DNA of 55,929 bases, filler included, from Dugesia japonica (taxonomy: Eukaryota): NCBI GenBank assembly GCA_001938525.1. It is 4 parts of 4 records of this genome, joined end to end, with 100 filler letters (N's around TTAATTAATTAA, not from the genome) between each part and the next. Parts side by side here need not be neighbours in the genome. Positions count along the whole stretch, not along the records: positions 1 to 15,683 come from MQRL01640427.1; 3 more parts are not named here. One strand, 5' to 3'. The first letter of the stretch is position 1. Every line of letters starts with the position of its first letter. The notes below the pieces were generated by a model that was given only the letters and a program-made list of their open reading frames with translations, did not search any database and was not told the DNA's origin. Below, one piece after another: positions 3,950 through 51,512 of this stretch. The translations under genes and the position numbers were made by a program.

Positions 3950-4135
3950 TCTTTTTAATAAACAGCGTTGTCTACAAGTAAACAGCTATAAAATGTTCTC
4001 CACATAGATTTTTTGTATGAGTATCCTCGATTAAGACAATGTTTACTGTAAAATACTGATCCAAGTAACTTTGATGCACTCCGTTCAATCTGAATAGAAC
4101 TAATAAATTAAACAATAACTCTTACGTTATTGCAA
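3950..4135 (-). pseudogene. Possible C-terminal remnant of adenain-like cysteine protease
   Basis: SIQIERSASKLLGSVFYSKHCLNRGYSYKKSMWRTFYSCLLVDNAVL loosely resembles the Polinton protease tail (Q-S--CG--C--F---R-RG-S). It lies directly after the MCP. Catalytic Cys is not retained. Confidence 0.3.
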
Positions 4136-4139
4136 TTCT

Positions 4140-5342
4140 TTACACCAATACTGTTCCGTTGGCATTAATCTGAATTTCCTTTTCGAATACCCCATAAATT
4201 ATAATATATGCCGATGTTGTAAAAGCTTTGACAAACTTGATATCCAATATCAAATTTCCTTGCTATGGTAATTGACTCTGATTTATATCGAAATCTGGAG
4301 CAAGAACAAATGTAAAAAAGGGATAATTATCCTTAAATTTGTAAAGTGTTATTCCAAAATTCATATTCTTATCCAAATATCCCATATTTCTTACTATATA
4401 TTGCATATATGTTGTAGTACAATTATCGTTTGTAAAATCTTGAGTATATATTTCTCGATAATCAATGTTTTTTGTCAAGGAAACGAAAACAGCATCTAGA
4501 TTTTGAAAGGTTGAACTCGAGCTTTTATAACTACCATTATATTGTTCTCTAATTTAAAATGTAACCAGAATAAAGCTAGGTAATCGACGATCACGGAAGA
4601 TTTGTTCTTTTTTAAACGATGAACTGTCTTTACTAATTGCAAATGCAACGAAATTTTTTGTTTCTTATTGGATAAAAGCAATTTGCTTTTTTAGTCCCAT
4701 TTGATTAGCAGCTAGTACTGAGGATTCAACTCATACACGTCTAACCATTAATTTTGCATCTAGTACTATATATCTTGGTTCATTAGCTGCAGATATCAAA
4801 CAAACCTTAGAAGATGGTCTAATCTAATATAGACATTGACATAAGGTATTTTGGTTGATCCATGAAATCGAGTTGTATTGAACTACATAGAGAAAATTGT
4901 TTGGATATTTTAATAGACGTTTTTCTATCTGATTCTAATCTATATCCCATTGATGTAAGACATATATTCTTACTATCGCCATTATAATTTATCATAGTTT
5001 CAATCAATGCTTAGGGAAGATAAGATCTATTTCCACCTTCAATTTTGAAATTATTAAACGTAAGAATTACATCCTTAAAAAACGTATGCAACATATTGTT
5101 ATTATGAACTGCATTATGAGTTTTAGTCATATCTTTACCATCCTTATCAACTATCTTCACTTTAATATACAATAAAGTATCATTCAAATCCAAATATTCT
5201 CTTTGAGATCCAATTATTAAAAACTCCACATCGCTTTATGATTCTAAAATTGAATTCATAGGAAAGACATCTTCAAAAGTACCACTTTCAATTACAGCTT
5301 GTGGAGATGGTCGATCAAAAGTACGTAATTCAGTTTTAATAT
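4140..5342 (-). pseudogene. Polinton major capsid protein (double jelly roll), fragmented
   Basis: Successive fragments KTELRTFDRPSPQAVIESG, EFLIIGSQREYLDLNDTLLYIKVKIV, NNMLHTFFKDV, IETMINY, QDFTND..YPFFTFVLAPDF and GNLILDIKFVKA..IYGVFEKEIQINANGTVL match the Polinton MCP pattern (KSELDLF..Q..IE / YLDL..T.LY / NN.LHSLF / AFDLTPD / GNLRLE..F...YAEFEN.I.I). Confidence 0.9.
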
Positions 5343-5344
5343 TT

Positions 5345-5873
5345 ATTTGTTCAACGGAATCATCGTTTTTAAAGGTATAAAAGCGAATAGTAAAAGTTTT
5401 ATCACCAATATGTTTACTAGTATCAAGATTTACAATTTCACCCGATTGTGCTAGTTGAGCTCTATCGTACGAAATTCTTTCCGAATTTTCTAAAGTATTA
5501 AATGACAAACTATGGAATTTAATAACAATATTAAAGTATATCATATTTTTGTTTATTAATTGTATAACTGTTTTCTTATTATTTTGATATTTGTCTTTAT
5601 TGGTAACAGACAAAAGAACTATTTTTCTTTATGGTTAACAACAACTGTTAGTTTCTTCTCAATTGATTTAAATAATTCATAAACAATCCTAGATTGACTG
5701 TAAATCGGCATGGCTGAATATACAAAGGTGAAATCCATCATGGCAACTTCCCAACTACCATCCATGTAAATTGGATTTTGAAGCTCAACAATGTAATTAC
5801 TATCAGTATTATTTGGATAAACTAGTGGAATACTATTTTTAGGTAAAATCGTATAGAAATTATTTGATTTCAT
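5345..5873 (-). pseudogene. Polinton minor capsid (penton) protein, N-terminal part
   Basis: FYTILPKNSIPLVYPNNTDSNYIVELQNPIYMDGSWEVAMMDF matches the penton N-terminal motif FY.TLPSN....YP.NT...F...L..P..L.G.WEV.L.. Confidence 0.85.
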
Positions 5874-5879
5874 CTGAAT

Positions 5880-6295
5880 TTTTGTCTTGATATTCTATTT
5901 GTGTTGCTACTATCCAACTTGGTTTTCGTATTCATATCATTTTACATAGTATTTTTATTCTTTCAGTCCCCTTTGATTAAAATCAAACACCTCTTGCAAA
6001 TTTATTGAATACAACGATAAATGACAAAAAATATACTTGTAAACTTTATTAATCTTTGAATATGGAACCATTTCCATTATATGCATTTATCATAAATCAT
6101 CAATACCATATGCTTTATATGCTCTTTTGGAAATCTTTTCAACATTGACTTGTTCAGATTGTACACTAGATGATCAGATAACCACTTTTTCGATTTGTTT
6201 GCTTTTTTTTAGCTGCTTTCATCAAATATTTTAAGCTTCGAAAATCTGCTGGGATTTTTGGACGCATCCATATTATCTTCATCTTTGTCTCCATT
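5880..6295 (-). pseudogene. Polinton retroviral-like integrase remnant (internally deleted)
   Basis: Minus strand reads LKYLMKAAKKK..KWLSDHLVYNLNKSMLKRFPKRAYKAYGIDDL**MHIMEMVPYSKINKVYKYI, matching the Polinton INT motif WL....YTLHKP.R..F.RR.....GIDD.WQ.DL.DM..YSK.N.GYKY.L. It ends with a chromodomain-like KPSWI. Confidence 0.85.
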
Positions 6296-6423
6296 ACAAC
6301 AATTTGATGCGAATTTCAGGTCAAAGTTAGGTGACGATTGCAATCCACTCACTGTTCATTTGAGTTAATTATTAATCTTGCTGCTATAAATTCAACCATT
6401 GTTTATTTGAAATGGGTTTTGCC

Positions 6424-6612
6424 TTATGCAACCAATGTAATTGGTAGTAATGCTGCTATAAAACCACCTCCTTTATTATTTATTACTCGTCTCATTGATT
6501 TTCTATTTTTTGTGTTTACAAGCGTTAATAAACTTTTTTTATGTTTTTTCAATGTTTTCCTTTTGGGTGCACTCAAATCAAAATGGTTTTTATTATATAT
6601 ACATATTCCATT
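6424..6612 (-). pseudogene. Small basic core-protein-like ORF (adenovirus pX-like GG-F motif)
   Basis: NHFDLSAPKRKTLKKHKKSLLTLVNTKNRKSMRRVINNKGGGFIAALLPITLVA*: a basic tract followed by GGF and a hydrophobic tail, typical of Polinton small ORFs. Confidence 0.7.
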
Positions 6613-8280
6613 ATATTTTTATTTCTTGTAATTACAAAATGACTAAACGAAAATCATCTATGAAGGAATTCGAACAGGATTTCATGAAAACAGATTGAAT
6701 ATTTATTAATTTTGTGATTTTATTAATAAATTTAATTTAGGAATTCTAACGGATATTTTAGAAAAACGGGAAATGATCGACGAAGAAAGAAAATGAATGA
6801 TTCCGGATGTTATAATAAGCCAGTATATGGCAGCTAAATTTTGCACACCTAACTGTATCGGGTGTGCAAAGTATAATCTTTTTGTTGACATGGAGAAGCA
6901 TCAGATAGAACTGCAGAATTACAACAATTATTTTTGTTTTGTATAGTGATTAGAAAATAAATGTATTATTATTTAGTTTTTTATTTAGTTTTTTTATAAT
7001 TTAAAATTATAATTCAAATAAATATAAAGATTTATTTCACTAAAAAACATAACACCAAGTAAACATTAAGTAAACAAATTTAGATTGTCTTTGAAATGTT
7101 TTTGACCTTCCATATAATTCCTACCAAATTTATTGATTTCTTAAAACCTTTAATCTCCACTTGAATCATCCATTGAATGTCGTCTTCATAATTGTTTTCA
7201 TCACGTTCTTTAAAGGCTATATAAATATTCTCATTGAATTCAATTTGTCTGCTTAATCAAGCAAATATGATTTTCAGTATATTTCTATCCTTCTCATAAA
7301 TTTCAGATAGAAGCAAACTAATCTTTTTATTGAAACTGGATTCTAAAATAAACTAATAATTTATAATGAAATAAAAAATAATTAATTTGAAATCATAGAT
7401 AATCGGAGTCTTTGAAAAGAACATCTTGTAATTGTGGAAATCAGTAATTTTTCCAAGTTCCACAATTATTGTTGACACATTTTCCTTGGTGAGTTGATTT
7501 TCTTGCATTTTTGAGTTGTAAAAGTGATTAATTTTATGTAAACCTTTGCTTATATAATAGTTGCGATGTATTTTTGTAATTTGTCTTTGAAATCGTAATT
7601 TGTGAGTTCCTATTGGTTAGTGTTTGCTTAAATTGATATGATTTGTTAATATTTCTTGTTAAATTTCAGCATAATTTTGGCTTGATTCTCTTTTTACTTT
7701 GCCACAAATTTTTGTCAGAATTTCTCTTTAAATCTGAACATATTTTTGTTTTGATTCTCTTTTGACTAGGCCACAAATTTTTGTCAAAATCTGTCTTCTA
7801 ATTTCAGCAACCCAACATTTTTATTAATTGTGCCAGATTTTATTAAAATCAACTTTTTTCAAAAAGTGATTACGTCATACCCACACCACAGAATTATTTC
7901 AATTAAATCTAAAATCACCGATAATTAATTCTCTTTTCACCCATACCGAATTCCCCTACCCAAAAATTCTTTTAACACTTTGATACTACTTACAAAAATA
8001 AACCAATCAAATTCAAACTCTAAAAATCTGAAATTCTGGTACAATCGACAACATTGTGGAAATATTTTACATCAGTTGGAAATTAGAAATGCAATAAAAA
8101 TTTATTACAAAAGATTGAAAATGATTATAATATTATCATTCATTCAAGAGCATTGGAATATTACGAAAAGATGCTATATATTCTCCATCTTGTTTTTTAA
8201 TTTATGCATAATTTAGTACATTGTTTATATTTTTTTATCGAATCAATTAAATTAATTCTGGAAATTCCTAATGTACCCCC

Positions 8281-8524
8281 TGGAGGGGTGACGTGTTGAA
8301 AGATTTAACAAAGAAAATGAGCTTTCCTATGAGTAAACCATGTCAACTCAAAGTCAAAAGTGACAAGTATACAAATATATTCTTTAGAACGGGAAAATGT
8401 AGAATAATGGAGTGCAAAAAACCATTAGAACTAAGATTTGAACCTCTTTGATATTAAAATTATATGACTACAATCTATAACAGTTATCGCAAATGTTGAG
8501 ATGTCTTTGGGATTTGGCAGAGGC
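8281..8524 (+). pseudogene. TATA-binding-protein-like fragment
   Basis: WRGDVLKDLTKKMSFPMSKPCQLKVKSDKYTNIFFRTGKCRIMECKKPL, then after a frameshift FDIKII*LQSITVIANV. Compare the TBP repeat motifs T.LIF.SGK.V.TG.K and FKIQN.V.S. Confidence 0.55.
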
Positions 8525-9192
8525 NNNNNNNNNNNNNNNNNNNNNNNNNNNNNNNNNNNNNNNNNNNNNNNNNNNNNNNNNNNNNNNNNNNNNNNNNNNN
8601 NNNNNNNNNNNNNNNNATATAAATAGAATAATATCGTATAAATATGCTATATAGTATTCCTTATATAATCAAATAAAAGATTTACTTTTAGAAATTTTAT
8701 TAAAATTCAATTATTCGTTTACAAGATATTATTTATTCGTTTACAAGGTATTAATTTTATCTACTGGTCTGCAACAATAAAAGTTTTAGACCTTTTACTA
8801 AATTTTAGTGAGGGTGAATTAAAATGAAAATAAGCTCTCTATTTGTACTAGACAGGTACGCATGCAAATTATAAGAAATCGTAAATATTTACAAGAAATA
8901 ATACAATAATTCATTAAAATTATAAATATTTATAAAATTCATGTACTAAAATTTTCTATTTTTATAAAATTATTCTATTGTTATATTTTCTGCAAAATTA
9001 TTCTTTTTAAAGCAAAATATTATGAGGTATATGGATAATTTCGTCTCGTTTCTATACAAATATTTTATTTAATTGAATTTATGGAAATATTAAACACTAG
9101 CACAATTGAAGTTTTAATGTTGCTTAATTGAACCAACTATATTGAAAATATTAAAAAAAAACTGCATTTTTTCAAATTTGGTAAAATTTAAA

Positions 9193-10042
9193 ATGTATAT
9201 AGAAATAAACATAGACACATCAAGCTTTATTATTTTCAGATGAGCAAAAATGCTTCACAGAACCCCACGAAAATATGGTCTGTGAGAGTACTGTTGATGA
9301 TTCTACGTGTCTCAAACGATTTCAGACATTTTTGCCAGAAAATGATTAATTTTACTGATGTACCACGTTCCGGATGACATATTAAGCGCGATAACGACAA
9401 AATATTGGCGCTTATTGAGAGTGATCACAATAGACAAACTGAAAAGATTGAATAAATTCTTTTTTTTAACTAGTTAACAGTTTCCAGACATTTACATAAA
9501 TTTGAAATTAACGGAGAAAAATTTACAAGACAATTACTGTTTGTGATTCTCTATTAATGTGTTACAAAGCTTTTAAACCGAGAGGTAACCCATAATGAAA
9601 AATTAACAGAATAGAATATTGTTAAGTGTAAGAAATCGTGGTGTACCGTTAACCGTAGCCAAAGACAGCCTATGTATAAGGAAAGCAATACTATATAAGC
9701 TGTGGAATTTTAAGAGAATCATTTATTATGAGCTTTTGCTTTAAAATCAAACTACTAATTCGAAAAAATAATTTTCACAACTGTAATTTGAAGGAAGCAA
9801 TCAACCAGAAGGTGCCTGAACTAGCAAACAAGAAGGCTATTTTTTAAATTCAGACGTGATAAGAACCTTTCTTGCTTGGAATATTCGAAATCTCTTGAAA
9901 CTGTTTCTCAGAGTTTTTGAGTGCAGCATTATGAAGCTTCCTGACAGATAAAGAAAGGTCATCCAACAGAATGGTCAATATTGTATTGATGGAATGTCAT
10001 TTTTTTTGTATAAAAAACTTGATCAACTTATGCAGTCCTAAT
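9193..10042 (+). mobile_element. Decayed mariner (DD34D-type) transposon
   Basis: N-terminal HRHIKLYYF..KNAS, FTDVPRSG, DNDKILALIESD; C-terminal IMKLPDR*RKVIQQNGQY. Confidence 0.8.
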
Positions 10043-32896: not shown

Positions 32897-33409
32897 TTGT
32901 GGATTTCCATTAATAATAAAAATACGGATTGTATCTTTGTTGATATAAAAGGTAGAGAAAATTTAACAAAACTAGAAAGTTTATTAGGAGATGATTTGTT
33001 TCAGATGAAAGATGAAAAGCCCAATTCTGAAATAATACAAGGTGATTTTTTAAAAGCAAAAAGTTATGGGTATTCTTTTATTGATAAAGGAGAGCTGATA
33101 TTTGATTCAAGAAATAAGGGTGTTCAAAAAAACAATAAAATTACGATGGAAGAATTTGATAAAGTTTTAAAAGATTCAAATGAAATAATTTATGGATTTA
33201 ATTATTCATTAAAACCTGAATTACATGAAATTCAATTAGTAAAACAAAATAAGATAGCATTAACAGGATATGATGATAAAATAATTATAGAAGATAATGG
33301 AGCAAGAACATGGGCACATGGAAATCAGTATACATGTGAAAAATGTGAAATTTGGCATTTGAGATTAGACTTGATAAATAAAACATTAACATATATATTT
33401 TTATTATAA
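32897..33409 (+). CDS. Protein-primed family B DNA polymerase, C-terminal fragment
   Basis: NTDCIFV (DTDS motif), QMKDE, FLKAKSY, KGV, HEIQLVKQNKIALTGYDDK.II...G..TWAHG: the canonical Polinton pPolB tail. Confidence 0.9.
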   Translation: MWISINNKNTDCIFVDIKGRENLTKLESLLGDDLFQMKDEKPNSEIIQGDFLKAKSYGYSFIDKGELIFDSRNKGVQKNNKITMEEFDKVLKDSNEIIYGFNYSLKPELHEIQLVKQNKIALTGYDDKIIIEDNGARTWAHGNQYTCEKCEIWHLRLDLINKTLTYIFLL

Positions 33410-33413
33410 TAAA

Positions 33414-33896
33414 ATGACTAGCAATCCATCAGAAGAAGAATTAGAGAAAATAGTAAATTCAAAAAAATGTAAATCTGTAAAGATTGATGGTAAAAATTAT
33501 TACATCAGTAAAAAAGTAAAAGATGAACTTAAAAAGCAATCTAAAGAAGGAGGATTTGCGTTTCTAGCTGCAATTCCAGCAATTATAACAGCCTTGGCCA
33601 GAACGGCCGGCATTTCATCTGAAATTGCTTCGATAGTTGCAAGCTCAAAACAAGCAATCAAAACACAAAAAGAAACTGAAATTTTATCCAAAGCAAGCGA
33701 ACCTAAAAAAGGAAAAGGCTTTTATTTAACACTTTATCAAGGCATGGCAATACATAAATATTTAAAAAATATCATTGAAGATCCTAACTTAAAAGAAGTA
33801 ACAAAAAAGTTTAAAGATGGAATTGAAATAATTCAACAAGGCAATGGATTATATTTAAATCCATTGCGCGTTGGCTGGCTAATTACAATTGTTTAA
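33414..33896 (+). CDS. Adintovirus/Polinton pX-like core protein precursor
   Basis: KEGGFAFLAAIPAIITALA..AGISSEIASIV (cf. adenovirus pX GG.LP.LIP.IAAAIGA.PGIASV), with repeated GKGFYL and GNGLYLNP motifs. Confidence 0.8.
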   Translation: MTSNPSEEELEKIVNSKKCKSVKIDGKNYYISKKVKDELKKQSKEGGFAFLAAIPAIITALARTAGISSEIASIVASSKQAIKTQKETEILSKASEPKKGKGFYLTLYQGMAIHKYLKNIIEDPNLKEVTKKFKDGIEIIQQGNGLYLNPLRVGWLITIV

Positions 33897-34865
33897 TTGT
33901 ATTTGTATACCTTTAATATAATATTTCTTTGATGTGTCGGGGGCTGGTGCCACACCTTTTGTGGTTTTTGTAATTTTCTGTATAAATAAATTACTATTAT
34001 TTTGAAATGAAATTTCTATTTCTTTAAAACAAATTAAAATATATCTAGGTTGATATNCAAGGCTGCCAATTTTTATTGAATAATATCCACCTGTTTCTAA
34101 ATTTGTTTTTCCTGTTATTCTATTTAGATAAGAAATGTTTATTGGTTTATTTGTTGATATTCTTTCTAACATAAATAATTCTGCTTTTGGTAATAATCTA
34201 TATTCTGGAATGTGAAAATCAAGTGTTAATAATTTTAATTTAGCTGTTGTATTATCTCCACAAAATAATAATTTATCTTCAATTTGTCGATGACATCTAA
34301 TCTCTGTCGATGTGTTGTATAAAAGTCGATTATAATTTTGCATGAATCCAAATAAGTTTTTTAATTGAAAGAATCCTTCAAATTTATTTGTGGCATAAAG
34401 GTTTTTTCTATTATAAAAACCTGTATTGCAATCCCAACTTTTTACTTCAGTGTCAACTTTATTTATATCTGGTAACCAGCCTGACAATTGTCCATATTCT
34501 TTTTTCCATGTTTCTGTTGTAGTTATTAAACTTAACATTGTAGATATTACACCTGGATCATTTATTGTTTCAACTTCTGATGAGCCAAGAAAAAATCTTA
34601 TCGAATTAAACAAACTTGGAAAACAATTATTTTCCAGAGTTATTTTATCTTTATCTTTTTCTGGAATTGTAATCTCAATTGTAAAGTATAATAGTGAATT
34701 ACAAATGTCAAGTGGATTTGTTAATTGAAGTGATTGAAAAACTATGTCACCATTTGAATTTAATTTATTTATTGTTCCTGATGATGGTGGAATTACAAGT
34801 GTATCATTTTTTATTGCTGGATGTGAAAATTCAATATTATTATCTAAATCTATCATCGTATTCAT
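33879..34865 (-). CDS. Double-jelly-roll major capsid protein, C-terminally truncated (328 aa open)
   Basis: LNSNGDIVF, TLENNCFPSLFNSIRFFLGSSEVETINDPGVISTM, GWLPD, NTGFYNR, LKNLFGFMQNYNRLLY and PRYILICF match the second Polinton MCP lineage (LN..G.I.I / NN....LF..I.Y.L.G.EIE....PG..TTM / PL..IFGF.EDY.K). Confidence 0.9.
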   Translation of the reverse strand: MNTMIDLDNNIEFSHPAIKNDTLVIPPSSGTINKLNSNGDIVFQSLQLTNPLDICNSLLYFTIEITIPEKDKDKITLENNCFPSLFNSIRFFLGSSEVETINDPGVISTMLSLITTTETWKKEYGQLSGWLPDINKVDTEVKSWDCNTGFYNRKNLYATNKFEGFFQLKNLFGFMQNYNRLLYNTSTEIRCHRQIEDKLLFCGDNTTAKLKLLTLDFHIPEYRLLPKAELFMLERISTNKPINISYLNRITGKTNLETGGYYSIKIGSLXYQPRYILICFKEIEISFQNNSNLFIQKITKTTKGVAPAPDTSKKYYIKGIQIQLNNCN

Positions 34866-34953
34866 TTTTTAAAGAAATTTTTTAGTGGTGTTTTTTTTTA
34901 TCTTACGTTACTATAAACCTTACTATAAACCTTACTGTAAGCCTTACATTACG

Positions 34954-35282
34954 TTACATTACATTACTGCATAATTTTTTCATATTAAGAATTAAATTTT
35001 CATAATTAATTTTTCTATCTTTCTTAGTTGGTATAACATTTAATTTTTTAATTGACACTAGTTTTTCAAATCTTTCAATTACAGAAATAAAACTTCCGTG
35101 TAAATTTCTTTGTATATTTCTAGATGGATCCCATGATCTCATGTTGTATTCAATGCCCCATTTCTTCAAATATATTTTTACTTTTTTTTATTTACATTAT
35201 GAAGTTTACAAAAATTTTGTATTGAATTAACTTGAAAATTATAATCATTTAACATTTTATAGAAAACTGAATTCTCATCCAT
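34954..35282 (-). pseudogene. Hypothetical viral ORF-B, copy 1 (MDENSVFYKML...KKWGIEYNMRSWDPSRN...), frameshifted
   Basis: Paralog of 36035-36366. Confidence 0.6.
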
Positions 35283-35283
35283 T

Positions 35284-35976
35284 TTATTTAGGTTTTATTT
35301 TAGTATATGCTCTTTCTACTCCACTAATTTCTTTTTGGGCTGGTATGCGAGTAAATTTTTCTCTTGAAAGATTTTTTAATTTTGCTCCTTCACTTAAAAT
35401 ACCAAAACGTTTTGCAGTTAAATTTAATTTTTTATCTTTATTTTCTGAATGACTTACTATAGTAATATCATCAATTGTTGGTGGTTTTAATTCTTGATTA
35501 TATTTTGTTAAAACTTCATTATGTTCATCTCTTTCTTTTTGCTGAGTAACACGCATTTCTTCAAAAGTGGCTATAAAGCCTTCTTTCTCATCATGTAATN
35601 NNNNNNNNNNNNNNNNNNNNNNNNNNNNNNNNNNNNNNNNNNNNNNNNNNNNNNNNNNNNNNNNNNNNNNNNNNNNNNNNNNNNNTTCTTCTAAATGCAT
35701 TTCATCTAATTTTTCATATAATCCATGAAGAAAATCTAAATGATGTTTTGCAGTTTCTTCTAAAAGTTCATAATTTAAATATTCTTTTATTTCATCTATA
35801 TTTGACTCATTACAAATGTCAAGTGGATTTGTTGATTGAAGAGATTGAAATACAATGTCACCATTTGAATTTAATTTATTTATTGTGCCAGATGATGGTG
35901 GAATTACAAGTGTATCATTTTTTATTGCTGTATGTGAAAATTCAATATTATTATCTAAGTCTATCATGGTATTCAT
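35284..35976 (-). CDS. Chimeric ORF: MCP residues 1-56 fused in frame to the ORF-A body
   Basis: First 56 aa are nearly identical to the MCP at 34865; from NESNIDEIKEYL onward it is homologous to ORF-A (ELNIDELKEYL). Contains an N gap. Confidence 0.7.
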   Translation of the reverse strand: MNTMIDLDNNIEFSHTAIKNDTLVIPPSSGTINKLNSNGDIVFQSLQSTNPLDICNESNIDEIKEYLNYELLEETAKHHLDFLHGLYEKLDEMHLEEXXXXXXXXXXXXXXXXXXXXXXXXXXXXXLHDEKEGFIATFEEMRVTQQKERDEHNEVLTKYNQELKPPTIDDITIVSHSENKDKKLNLTAKRFGILSEGAKLKNLSREKFTRIPAQKEISGVERAYTKIKPK

Positions 35977-36034
35977 TTCTTAAAGAAATTTTTTAGTCGT
36001 GTTTTTTTTACCTTACTATAAACCTTACATTACG

Positions 36035-36366
36035 TTACATTACTGTATACTTTTTTGATTTATTCATTTCTAATAAAAAATTATCAAAATTAATTTTCCC
36101 ATCAGAAAACTTAGAAGTTACAACATTTAATTTTTTAATTGACACTTGTTTTTCAAATCTTTCAATTACAGAAATAAAACTTCCATGTGAATTTTTTTGT
36201 ATATTTCTAGATGGATCCCACAATCTCCTGTTGTATTCAATTTCCCATTTCTTCAAATATTTTTTACTATTTTATCATTCACATTATAAAGTTTACAAAA
36301 ATTTTGTATTGAATTATCTTTAAAATATTCATTTAACATTTTATAAAAAACTGAATTCTCATCCAT
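36035..36366 (-). pseudogene. Hypothetical viral ORF-B, copy 2, one frameshift
   Basis: MDENSVFYKMLNEYFKDNSIQNFCKLYNVNDKIVKNI/LKKWEIEYNRRLWDPSRN... Confidence 0.6.
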
Positions 36367-36987
36367 TTATTTAAAATTTTTTTTTTGGTATATGCTCTAT
36401 CAAATCCAGTAATTTCTTTTTTGGATGATATGCGAGTATATTTTTCTACTGAAAGATTATTACGATTTACTCCATCAAGTAAATTATTTAAACGTTTTCC
36501 AGTTAATATTTTTTTCTTATCACCAGAATAATGCACTAAAAATTTATAATCATCAATTTTAATGGTTTTAATTTTTCTTTTAATTTAGATAAAGCTATAT
36601 TATGTTCATCTCTTTCTTTTTGCAAATCTTCTTGTTGTTGTTTAATGATATTTACTTGTGCTTCATCCCTTTCATTAAATAATTCAACTAATAAAGCACG
36701 ACATCACTTTCTACATATTTTGTTACAATAATAGTTATTAGCTTTTTATACAATTTTTTATTTTCTTGTGATGTTTTTAATTCATCCAATTTTTCATATA
36801 TTTCATGAAGATATTTTAAATAACCTTCCGCCGTTTTTCTTGTTAAATCATTTTTTAAATATTCTTTTAATTCATCTATATTCAACTCTTCTGTTTCATC
36901 AAAACTTTCTATAGAATTTATTAATGTAATAAAAGTTAATTCACAACCCTCTTTTTCCTCTGGAACAACTTTTTTCTCTGCACTCAT
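36367..36987 (-). pseudogene. Hypothetical helical/coiled-coil viral ORF-A, interrupted
   Basis: Track ORFs 36688-36987 and 36333-36536 are both homologous to the C-terminal part of 35284-35976 (QKERDEHN, LT.KR, NLS.EK.TRI, EI.G..RAYTK). Confidence 0.6.
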
Positions 36988-37064
36988 TTTCTATAGCACA
37001 AATTTAAGTCTCACGCAATTTTTCATGCAAATCGAATATTTTTAATTTAGGCATTCGATGTTTT

Positions 37065-37200
37065 TCGATGTCGCATTTTCGCGCGACATTTTTCTTGTAA
37101 GATCTTTCGGTGTGACATTTTTCGTGTGACTTTTTTCACTTGACATTTTTTTATGTTGCATTTTTCACTTGATATTTGAAGCTAGGGTACCCCCCTCCGG
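37065..37200. repeat. Subterminal ~14-bp repeats (TGACATTTTTC-like) ending in GGGTACCCCCC
   Basis: Six degenerate units followed by a GC-rich palindromic motif where viral ORFs stop. Confidence 0.6.

Positions 37201-38173: not shown

Positions 38174-51512
<13,339 letters not shown>

Follow-up and report, generated by a model that had tools for sequence, protein, structure and literature searches.

Results

A broken TBP-like gene at the edge of a decayed element

The window, by which we mean the whole stretch of 55,929 nucleotides (filler included) of Dugesia japonica DNA analysed here, carries at 8284-8509 on the plus strand a 5'-truncated, frameshifted and stop-broken member of a family of TBP-fold proteins of about 149 residues, termed mini-TBP in the following. 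It lies beside the remnants of what we call the left element of the window, and the features of this region are:

3978..4034, minus strand: remnant of an adenain-type protease (tblastn E 0.003-0.005 to Peptidase_C5-like proteins)
4143..5358, minus strand: major-capsid-like remnant, labelled by gene order (tblastn E 1e-67 to L020:8351-9607; no library match)
5658..5873, minus strand: penton/minor-capsid-like remnant, labelled by gene order (tblastn E 4e-5 to L020:7017-8054)
6006..6259, minus strand: integrase remnant (tblastn E 1e-11 to rve-positive proteins)
6421..6534, minus strand: pX-like (KGGF..LLP) remnant (tblastn E 4e-7)
7098..7442, minus strand: decayed gene for a neighbour protein of about 115 residues, head-to-head with the TBP gene (tblastn E 1e-4 to 3e-3 from three loci; profile E 6e-6 and 6e-7)
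7642..7809, plus strand: 69-nt repeat in about 2.5 copies within the divergent intergenic region
7870..8013, plus strand: non-coding block in very high copy, with a CRE-like octamer at 7870 and CCAAT at 8003
8273..8280, plus strand: GTACCCCC, upstream of the point where sister-copy homology starts and outside the mini-TBP coding sequence
8284..8448, plus strand: first lobe of the mini-TBP pseudogene, covering profile positions 8-56 (first seven or so codons gone)
8449..8524, plus strand: mini-TBP pseudogene, next frame, with the start of the second lobe and the QSIT strand (profile positions 51-81, i-E 0.078)
8525..8616, no strand: assembly gap of 92 N, truncating the mini-TBP copy

Both readings that the original prediction had quoted for this place are present on the plus strand. 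KVKSDKYTNIFFRTGKCRIMECKKPL lies within frame 1 (8272-8448), which is closed by a TGA at 8449-8451, and the next frame reads DIKII*LQSITVIANV with an in-frame TGA at 8465-8467; the frameshift was placed near 8445-8450. The N gap said to cut the fragment is also there, and the last 65 or so residues of mini-TBP were not found beyond it in any frame with the family profile. The motif GTACCCCC, given as preceding the reading, does so at 8273-8280 and occurs a second time in the window, at 37187. It is nevertheless not part of the gene, since sister copies, represented by contig pieces and by reads of three DNA runs, begin to match only at about 8287, and it follows from the same observation that the first codons of the window copy are gone, with other DNA in their place. 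As a transposon end the motif was discarded, no inverted-repeat partner having been found. The window copy is dead and cannot make the protein, and its value rests in the family to which it leads.

Taken alone, the fragment reaches only E 0.12 and 12.6 bits with the Pfam TBP model (cut-off 22.9), and the X-joined form of both frames has no Pfam match. Its assignment to TBP by HMMER was borne out by its relatives: phmmer against 1.84 billion proteins returned four matches of 107-153 residues (best E 1.5e-11 at 53%, P0004), all of which exceed the Pfam TBP cut-off with 30-66 bits, and 15 alignment columns are invariant in the fragment and these four proteins. A profile of 120 relatives has the mini-TBP copy as its sole match region in the window, with E 1e-13 for 8284-8433 (positions 8-56) and a weak continuation in the next frame at 8417-8509 (positions 51-81, i-E 0.078). 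A word-based search of longer proteins with the 59-residue fragment gave two candidates, neither of which scored, while the single match of a PDB sequence search and an 8-residue match in IMG/VR (L001) were judged to be due to chance.

Other elements were noted elsewhere in the window. A second Polinton-like element at 32897-37200 differs from the left element. It comprises a pX-like ORF (33390-33896), a capsid gene of DJR-like type (33879-34868, Pfam E 2e-12) and, at 35284-35979, a partial duplicate of the start of the latter; the mini-TBP profile has no match in this element (33-37 kb), and hhalign relates the major-capsid-like remnant of the left element to its Pfam DJR-positive gene (33.9-34.9 kb) only at E 0.11. 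A mariner-like remnant at 9240-10000, beyond the gap, and a decayed gypsy-like retroelement at 46784-49900 with RT, RNase H and integrase-like readings were labelled by eye.

Mini-TBP is a divergent family within the TBP fold

A search with seven aligned relatives yielded 377 matches among 894 candidates, and all family statistics given here refer to the best 120 of the 377, the median length of which is 149 residues. Six matches were obtained among longer proteins, five of them cellular-looking TBPs or TRFs and one a family member with an extension. The latter, P0127, carries about 200 additional C-terminal residues and is a single record; a fusion of TBP with the neighbour protein was rejected as its explanation, the neighbour profile matching only at E 0.75. 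IMG/VR scans gave no matches with query A2 and two canonical TBPs with query A3.

The AlphaFold2 model of the intact natural relative P0005 is a two-lobed saddle (pLDDT 96.7) which matches TBP with a Foldseek E of 8e-10 and a VIA Z of 13.2 over 145 of 148 residues (rmsd 2.5); the next unrelated fold match is RepDE at Z 7.1. The TBP fold that had been predicted for full-length copies is thus recovered in the model, and intact relatives also possess the anticipated second repeat with EPE.FP and F.[ST]GK. In a tree of 38 rows, which exclude the window fragment, 33 family members lie on one side of a branch with 100/99 support and five canonical TBPs, three cellular and two from viral contigs (L018, L019), on the other; long branches meet at this split. 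Together with an identity to cellular TBP of about 22% this agrees with the claim that the fragment is far from host TBP. Archaeal TBPs score highest with the family profile, and the stirrup of mini-TBP is of the eukaryotic type. Mini-TBP is a member of the TBP family (PF00352) and not a canonical eukaryotic TBP.

Predicted loss of helix H2 and a polar DNA face

Residue numbers are those of P0005, human TBP is numbered after 29vf_O, residues of the N-lobe were paired with cellular TBP by hand, and DNA-contact positions were taken from Table 1 of PMC12529657. The linker between the last strand of the N-lobe and the first strand of the C-lobe (G50-Q71) has a median length of 20 residues (range 18-32, n=120) against 33 in human TBP, and the P0005 model contains no helix of four or more residues within it. 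The model therefore indicates that the N-lobe helix H2 is lost in the family, which explains the short spacing between the two motifs that had been remarked upon; the predicted compactness of the protein is likewise borne out by the family. H2 is the site of three basic positions bound by TFIIA, TAF1, Brf1/2 and Mot1, as described in PMC7221094. The same paper assigns TFIIB binding to E284/E286 of TBP and gives a conservation of about 40% for the first of these glutamates in other viral TBPs. In mini-TBP both are kept: E97 is glutamate in 116 and aspartate in 4 of 120 proteins, and E99 is invariant (120/120). The corresponding region is missing from the window copy.

Three of the four intercalating phenylalanines are retained (F41 in 120, F101 in 119 and F117 in 118 of the best 120 proteins), while the fourth position, equivalent to human F197 according to the hand pairing, is a proline (P26, 119/120). 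Positions that are hydrophobic and face the DNA in cellular TBP are polar and nearly fixed (N6, R47, T74, R105, N115), with counts of 116/120 for N6, 119/120 for R47 and 118/120 each for R105 and N115; S72 is found in 117/120.

Genes accompanying mini-TBP in related elements

In 8 of 16 metagenome loci mini-TBP is accompanied by at least one of ATPase, integrase and protease. An A32-type packaging ATPase exceeds the cut-off in six loci, a Peptidase_C5-like (adenain-type) protease occurs in two (above the cut-off in one), and an rve integrase is present in two, with a fragment in a third. The remaining eight loci share neighbour genes with these loci or among themselves. All three markers are combined in L020 (JANOGQ010000345.1), a 12.4-kb contig that represents a near-complete element with ATPase, rve+chromo integrase, protease, pX-like, penton-like and capsid-like genes, a polymerase-like ORF and a mini-TBP of 40.6 bits, above the Pfam TBP cut-off. 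Although filed in a Lysobacterales MAG, this contig is probably a eukaryotic Polinton-type sequence and a stray of the binning. These data support carriage of the mini-TBP family by Polinton/adintovirus-type elements.

The predicted linkage to integrase genes was recovered in the two rve-positive loci, in L020 and as the integrase remnant of the window. For MCP and pPolB the outcome is mixed, ORFs being found in the expected place or with the expected motifs, but not confirmed by the libraries. An ORF of 415-419 residues lies before the protease, where a capsid gene is expected, in L008, L011, L020 and the window, and has no match in Pfam, PHROG, NCBIfam or PDB; family-B polymerase motifs A, B and C can be discerned by eye in a 1035-residue ORF of L020, for which the libraries gave an endonuclease VII-like match only. 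What we take to be capsid-like, penton-like and polymerase-like genes is named after gene order and visible motifs. The pX-like relatives match Adeno_PX weakly and below the cut-off. Tblastn with the relatives recognised neither an ATPase nor a polymerase in the left element of the window, the gene remnants of which, from protease to pX-like, lie at 3978-6534 on the minus strand.

The neighbour protein of about 115 residues flanks mini-TBP in 11 of 16 loci (L002-L005, L007, L009, L010, L012, L013, L015, L016), head-to-head in L002, L005, L007, L010 and the window, and exists in a short form and in a longer form with an acidic tail. A resemblance to OB-fold SSB proteins was not borne out by the model (pLDDT 52, best Z 2.5, no fold match). 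Often found beside mini-TBP is also an ORF of 160-175 residues with a D-x-E..F..KE motif (L008:2913-3404, L011:1134-1658, L012, L014, L015, L020:10485-10964), which is presumably nuclease-like and has no match in Pfam, PHROG or NCBIfam.

A TATAAAC box precedes genes of the related elements

The heptamer TATAAAC was spotted initially upstream of ATPase, pX-like, integrase, capsid-like and protease genes. The 16 loci contain 52 copies of it, compared with 14.4+-3.9 after shuffling (maximum 25 in 100 shuffles). It is present in 12 of the loci, almost always on the gene strand, and absent from four. An ORF starts 15-100 nt downstream of 37 of the 52 sites, in 20 cases at 32-39 nt, compared with a background of 10% and with 5 of 41 sites for TATAAAA, 8 of 40 for TATAAAT and 2 of 22 for TATAAAG at the same distance. 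Three of the loci, L005, L007 and L010, are close kin; without L007 and L010, 26 of 37 sites precede an ORF by hand count. Because the motif was chosen after inspection of the 16 loci while L020 was fetched later, the latter provides a fair test: it contains 11 boxes against 4.5 expected, a number that none of 200 shuffles reached, and all are on the gene strand. The TBP of L020 is altered at N4, R47, M49 and Q71, four conserved residues of the DNA side, and since the element keeps TATAAAC all the same, a box-reading code of single residues is weakened.

The TBP gene itself is preceded by CCAAT and a more ordinary TATA in seven of 16 loci, as judged by eye, and in L020. Exceptions to such a division into early and late genes are a box 77 nt before TBP in L009 and one before the neighbour gene in L015. 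Several TATAAAC sites overlap stop codons or Tyr-Lys-Gln codons, and TATAAA resembles the poly(A) signal. In L005, L007 and L010 an alternative-frame ORF (L005:3586-4095, L007:3896-4384, L010:2554-3057) lies inside an acidic ORF of 235-244 residues and has its own TATAAAC 58-67 nt upstream.

In the window as a whole TATAAAC is not enriched (26 against 26.0). It is missing from the gene strand of the left element, and this element has 13 sites with one mismatch where 21 were expected. As TBP-free Polintons for comparison, IMG/VR yielded none with ATPase, capsid-like, polymerase-like and integrase queries. One weak control is the second element of the window, in which the mini-TBP profile has no match and which instead shows tandem GTAAG/GTAAC/GTAAT words at 34895-34975 (minus strand), immediately upstream of its capsid gene. 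Such words recall the TAAG motif of baculovirus late promoters and are possibly the late box of another lineage.

Transcription of sister copies

The mini-TBP stretch is present in high copy in the DNA runs of the organism. Poly(A) reads cover the TBP part and are mostly less than 90% alike, which shows that they stem from sister copies. First mates over this part map mainly to the minus strand (62.9 vs 14.6 in X10, 28.8 vs 2.8 in X11), X11 has the opposite bias over 7171-7774 with a switch at about 7900, and there is little bias over the capsid-like region. X10 and X11 belong to the same study; coverage in X9 and X13 is shallow and shows no bias. If the libraries were stranded in the usual way, the mate bias fits divergent transcription. 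The block at 7870-8013 is the strongest RNA peak in both X10 and X11, and we infer that in sister copies it is a candidate for the upstream or 5' part of the transcript that carries TBP.

Discussion

A possible late-gene switch made of a single protein

Mini-TBP is a new viral TBP variant with a candidate promoter partner. Judging from sequence and gene placement, we assign a probability of roughly 0.6 to the proposal that intact mini-TBP acts as a one-protein late-gene switch which would bind TATAAAC and recruit TFIIB and host Pol II. The TBP gene would be expressed early from its promoter with CCAAT and ordinary TATA. Its product would bend DNA by means of the three remaining phenylalanines, and the remodelled N-lobe would read the 3' end, the part of the box in which TATAAAC deviates from the consensus; the N-lobe of TBP is known to contact the 3' half of the TATA box. 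Lacking H2, mini-TBP would escape control by TFIIA, TAF1, Brf1 and Mot1, while its acidic stirrup would bring in TFIIB, that of the host unless the element encodes its own, and Pol II would start a few bases before the ATG of the late genes. The steering of host Pol II, which the original prediction had put forward, is inferred here as well; the likely target is the variant TATAAAC and not AT-rich DNA in general. A broader version of this proposal, in which a clade of animal Polintons would run its late programme with a single TBP of 150 residues, devoid of H2, equipped with a TFIIB hook and co-evolved with a private TATAAAC promoter some 35 nt upstream of the start codon, so that the mRNAs would have hardly any leader, is tentative, and we put its chances a little below even.

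Other functions of mini-TBP were considered. As a repressor or decoy the protein would occupy TATA-like boxes or soak up TFIIB and so damp host or early transcription, TATAAAC being read by host TBP. The retained TFIIB stirrup combined with the loss of the surface for the stabilising factor TFIIA would suit such a role, binding of a C(-25) TATA variant is within the capacity of host TBP according to the title of PDB 1qn3, and L020 keeps the box despite altered N-lobe residues; it may indeed be that TATAAAC is a clade feature read by host TBP. We nevertheless regard the decoy as unlikely, because polar substitutions that hardly vary among 120 proteins indicate selection towards one specific DNA sequence, and because TATAAAA, TATAAAT and TATAAAG show no such position ahead of genes in these loci. 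Slightly less likely still is a closed pair of mini-TBP and an element-encoded partner, either a viral TFIIB or the neighbour protein, that leaves host TFIIB unused in the manner of giant viruses or the herpesvirus late complex. Such a pair is suggested by the neighbour family, which adjoins TBP in the window as well as in 11 of the 16 loci, and by the statement in PMC7221094 that most viral TBPs are accompanied by their own TFIIB. Arguing against it, no TFIIB match was obtained with Pfam in 33, 11 and 30 locus and window proteins, near-complete L020 included, although the majority of the loci are incomplete and a diverged TFIIB might escape Pfam. The neighbour model is of low confidence and without a fold match, and both TFIIB glutamates are kept, compared with the 40% or so for the first in other viral TBPs (PMC7221094).

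Non-transcriptional DNA binding, for example in the bending of origins or terminal repeats, in packaging or as an aid to integration, with TATAAAC as a by-product of poly(A) signals or coding sequence, appears improbable. It draws on the occurrence of the TBP fold in proteins outside transcription, such as RepDE, and on the many boxes that lie 5-22 nt from a stop codon; yet other sites fall within capsid-like and penton-like ORFs, 76-106 nt from their ends, so that cleavage there would truncate the reading frame. The distance from the box to the following ATG is moreover sharply defined and has no counterpart for AATAAA (17/149), and the EPE motif is invariant or nearly so. That the window copy is a host TBP or TRF pseudogene situated by chance beside a Polinton is hardly credible, even though it sits at the edge of the element after a junction at about 8287: it scores 44 bits with the element family against 12.6 with Pfam TBP, carries the diagnostic columns of the family, adjoins the same neighbour gene and is high-copy in the runs of the genome.

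Relation to known TBPs

With cellular TBP (PF00352; human 29vf_O, yeast 1ytb) mini-TBP shares the predicted two-lobed saddle (Z 13.2), the EPELFP stirrup and three of the four intercalating phenylalanines. It differs in being about 30 residues shorter than the TBP core, in lacking the N-terminal tail and, according to the model, the N-lobe H2, in the replacement of the first phenylalanine by proline (hand pairing), in its polar DNA face, in its identity of only about 22% and in its location on a mobile element.

Among viral proteins, the vTBPs of beta- and gammaherpesviruses such as KSHV ORF24 likewise belong to viruses that have no RNA polymerase of their own, and they share the TBP fold. In PMC12529657 ORF24 is described as a viral late-gene TBP with a polar DNA face that reads a variant box, TATTWAA, before late genes; mini-TBP, too, has a polar face and is tied to a variant box, TATAAAC, by placing. 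The same paper describes ORF24 as a protein of 752 residues that has four phenylalanines, lacks the TFIIB acids and makes direct contact with Pol II as part of a complex of six proteins; mini-TBP, in contrast, is a bare core of 149 residues with the TFIIB acids kept, and the homology seen between the two extends to the fold. Mini-TBP may work like ORF24, but it is not a member of the ORF24/BcRF1/UL87 family. The TBPs of Nucleocytoviricota are also viral TBPs with a diverged regulator surface of the N-lobe; they are mostly 185-550 residues long (BFVD matches) and usually accompanied by their own TFIIB according to PMC7221094, in which Polintons are not mentioned. L018 and L019 have canonical lengths and fall on the side of the cellular TBPs, separate from the mini-TBP family.

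TBP had been stated not to be among the standard Polinton genes. The sole prior trace found in the literature is the legend of Fig. 5 of PMC8502044, where 'TBP' appears as a label for MELD viruses whose PolB is adintovirus-like; the comparison relates to the text of that article, the figure maps of which may name a family member. By this legend label, the MELD gene has in common with mini-TBP that a TBP-like gene resides on a midsize Polinton-related virus. The label belongs to a section on non-animal data sets, and the passages considered describe neither a family nor a structure, a promoter box or a mechanism (PMC8502044).

A candidate activator together with its box bears on the question of how Polintons, which lack a gene for RNA polymerase, control when their capsid and packaging genes are expressed, and on whether they are active viruses. 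A natural TBP without H2, as the model predicts, informs which surfaces of TBP are needed for initiation and could yield an orthogonal promoter system. If the proposed switch is true, mini-TBP and TATAAAC would constitute the smallest orthogonal TBP-promoter pair known and would provide evidence of a virus-like early/late cascade in Polintons.
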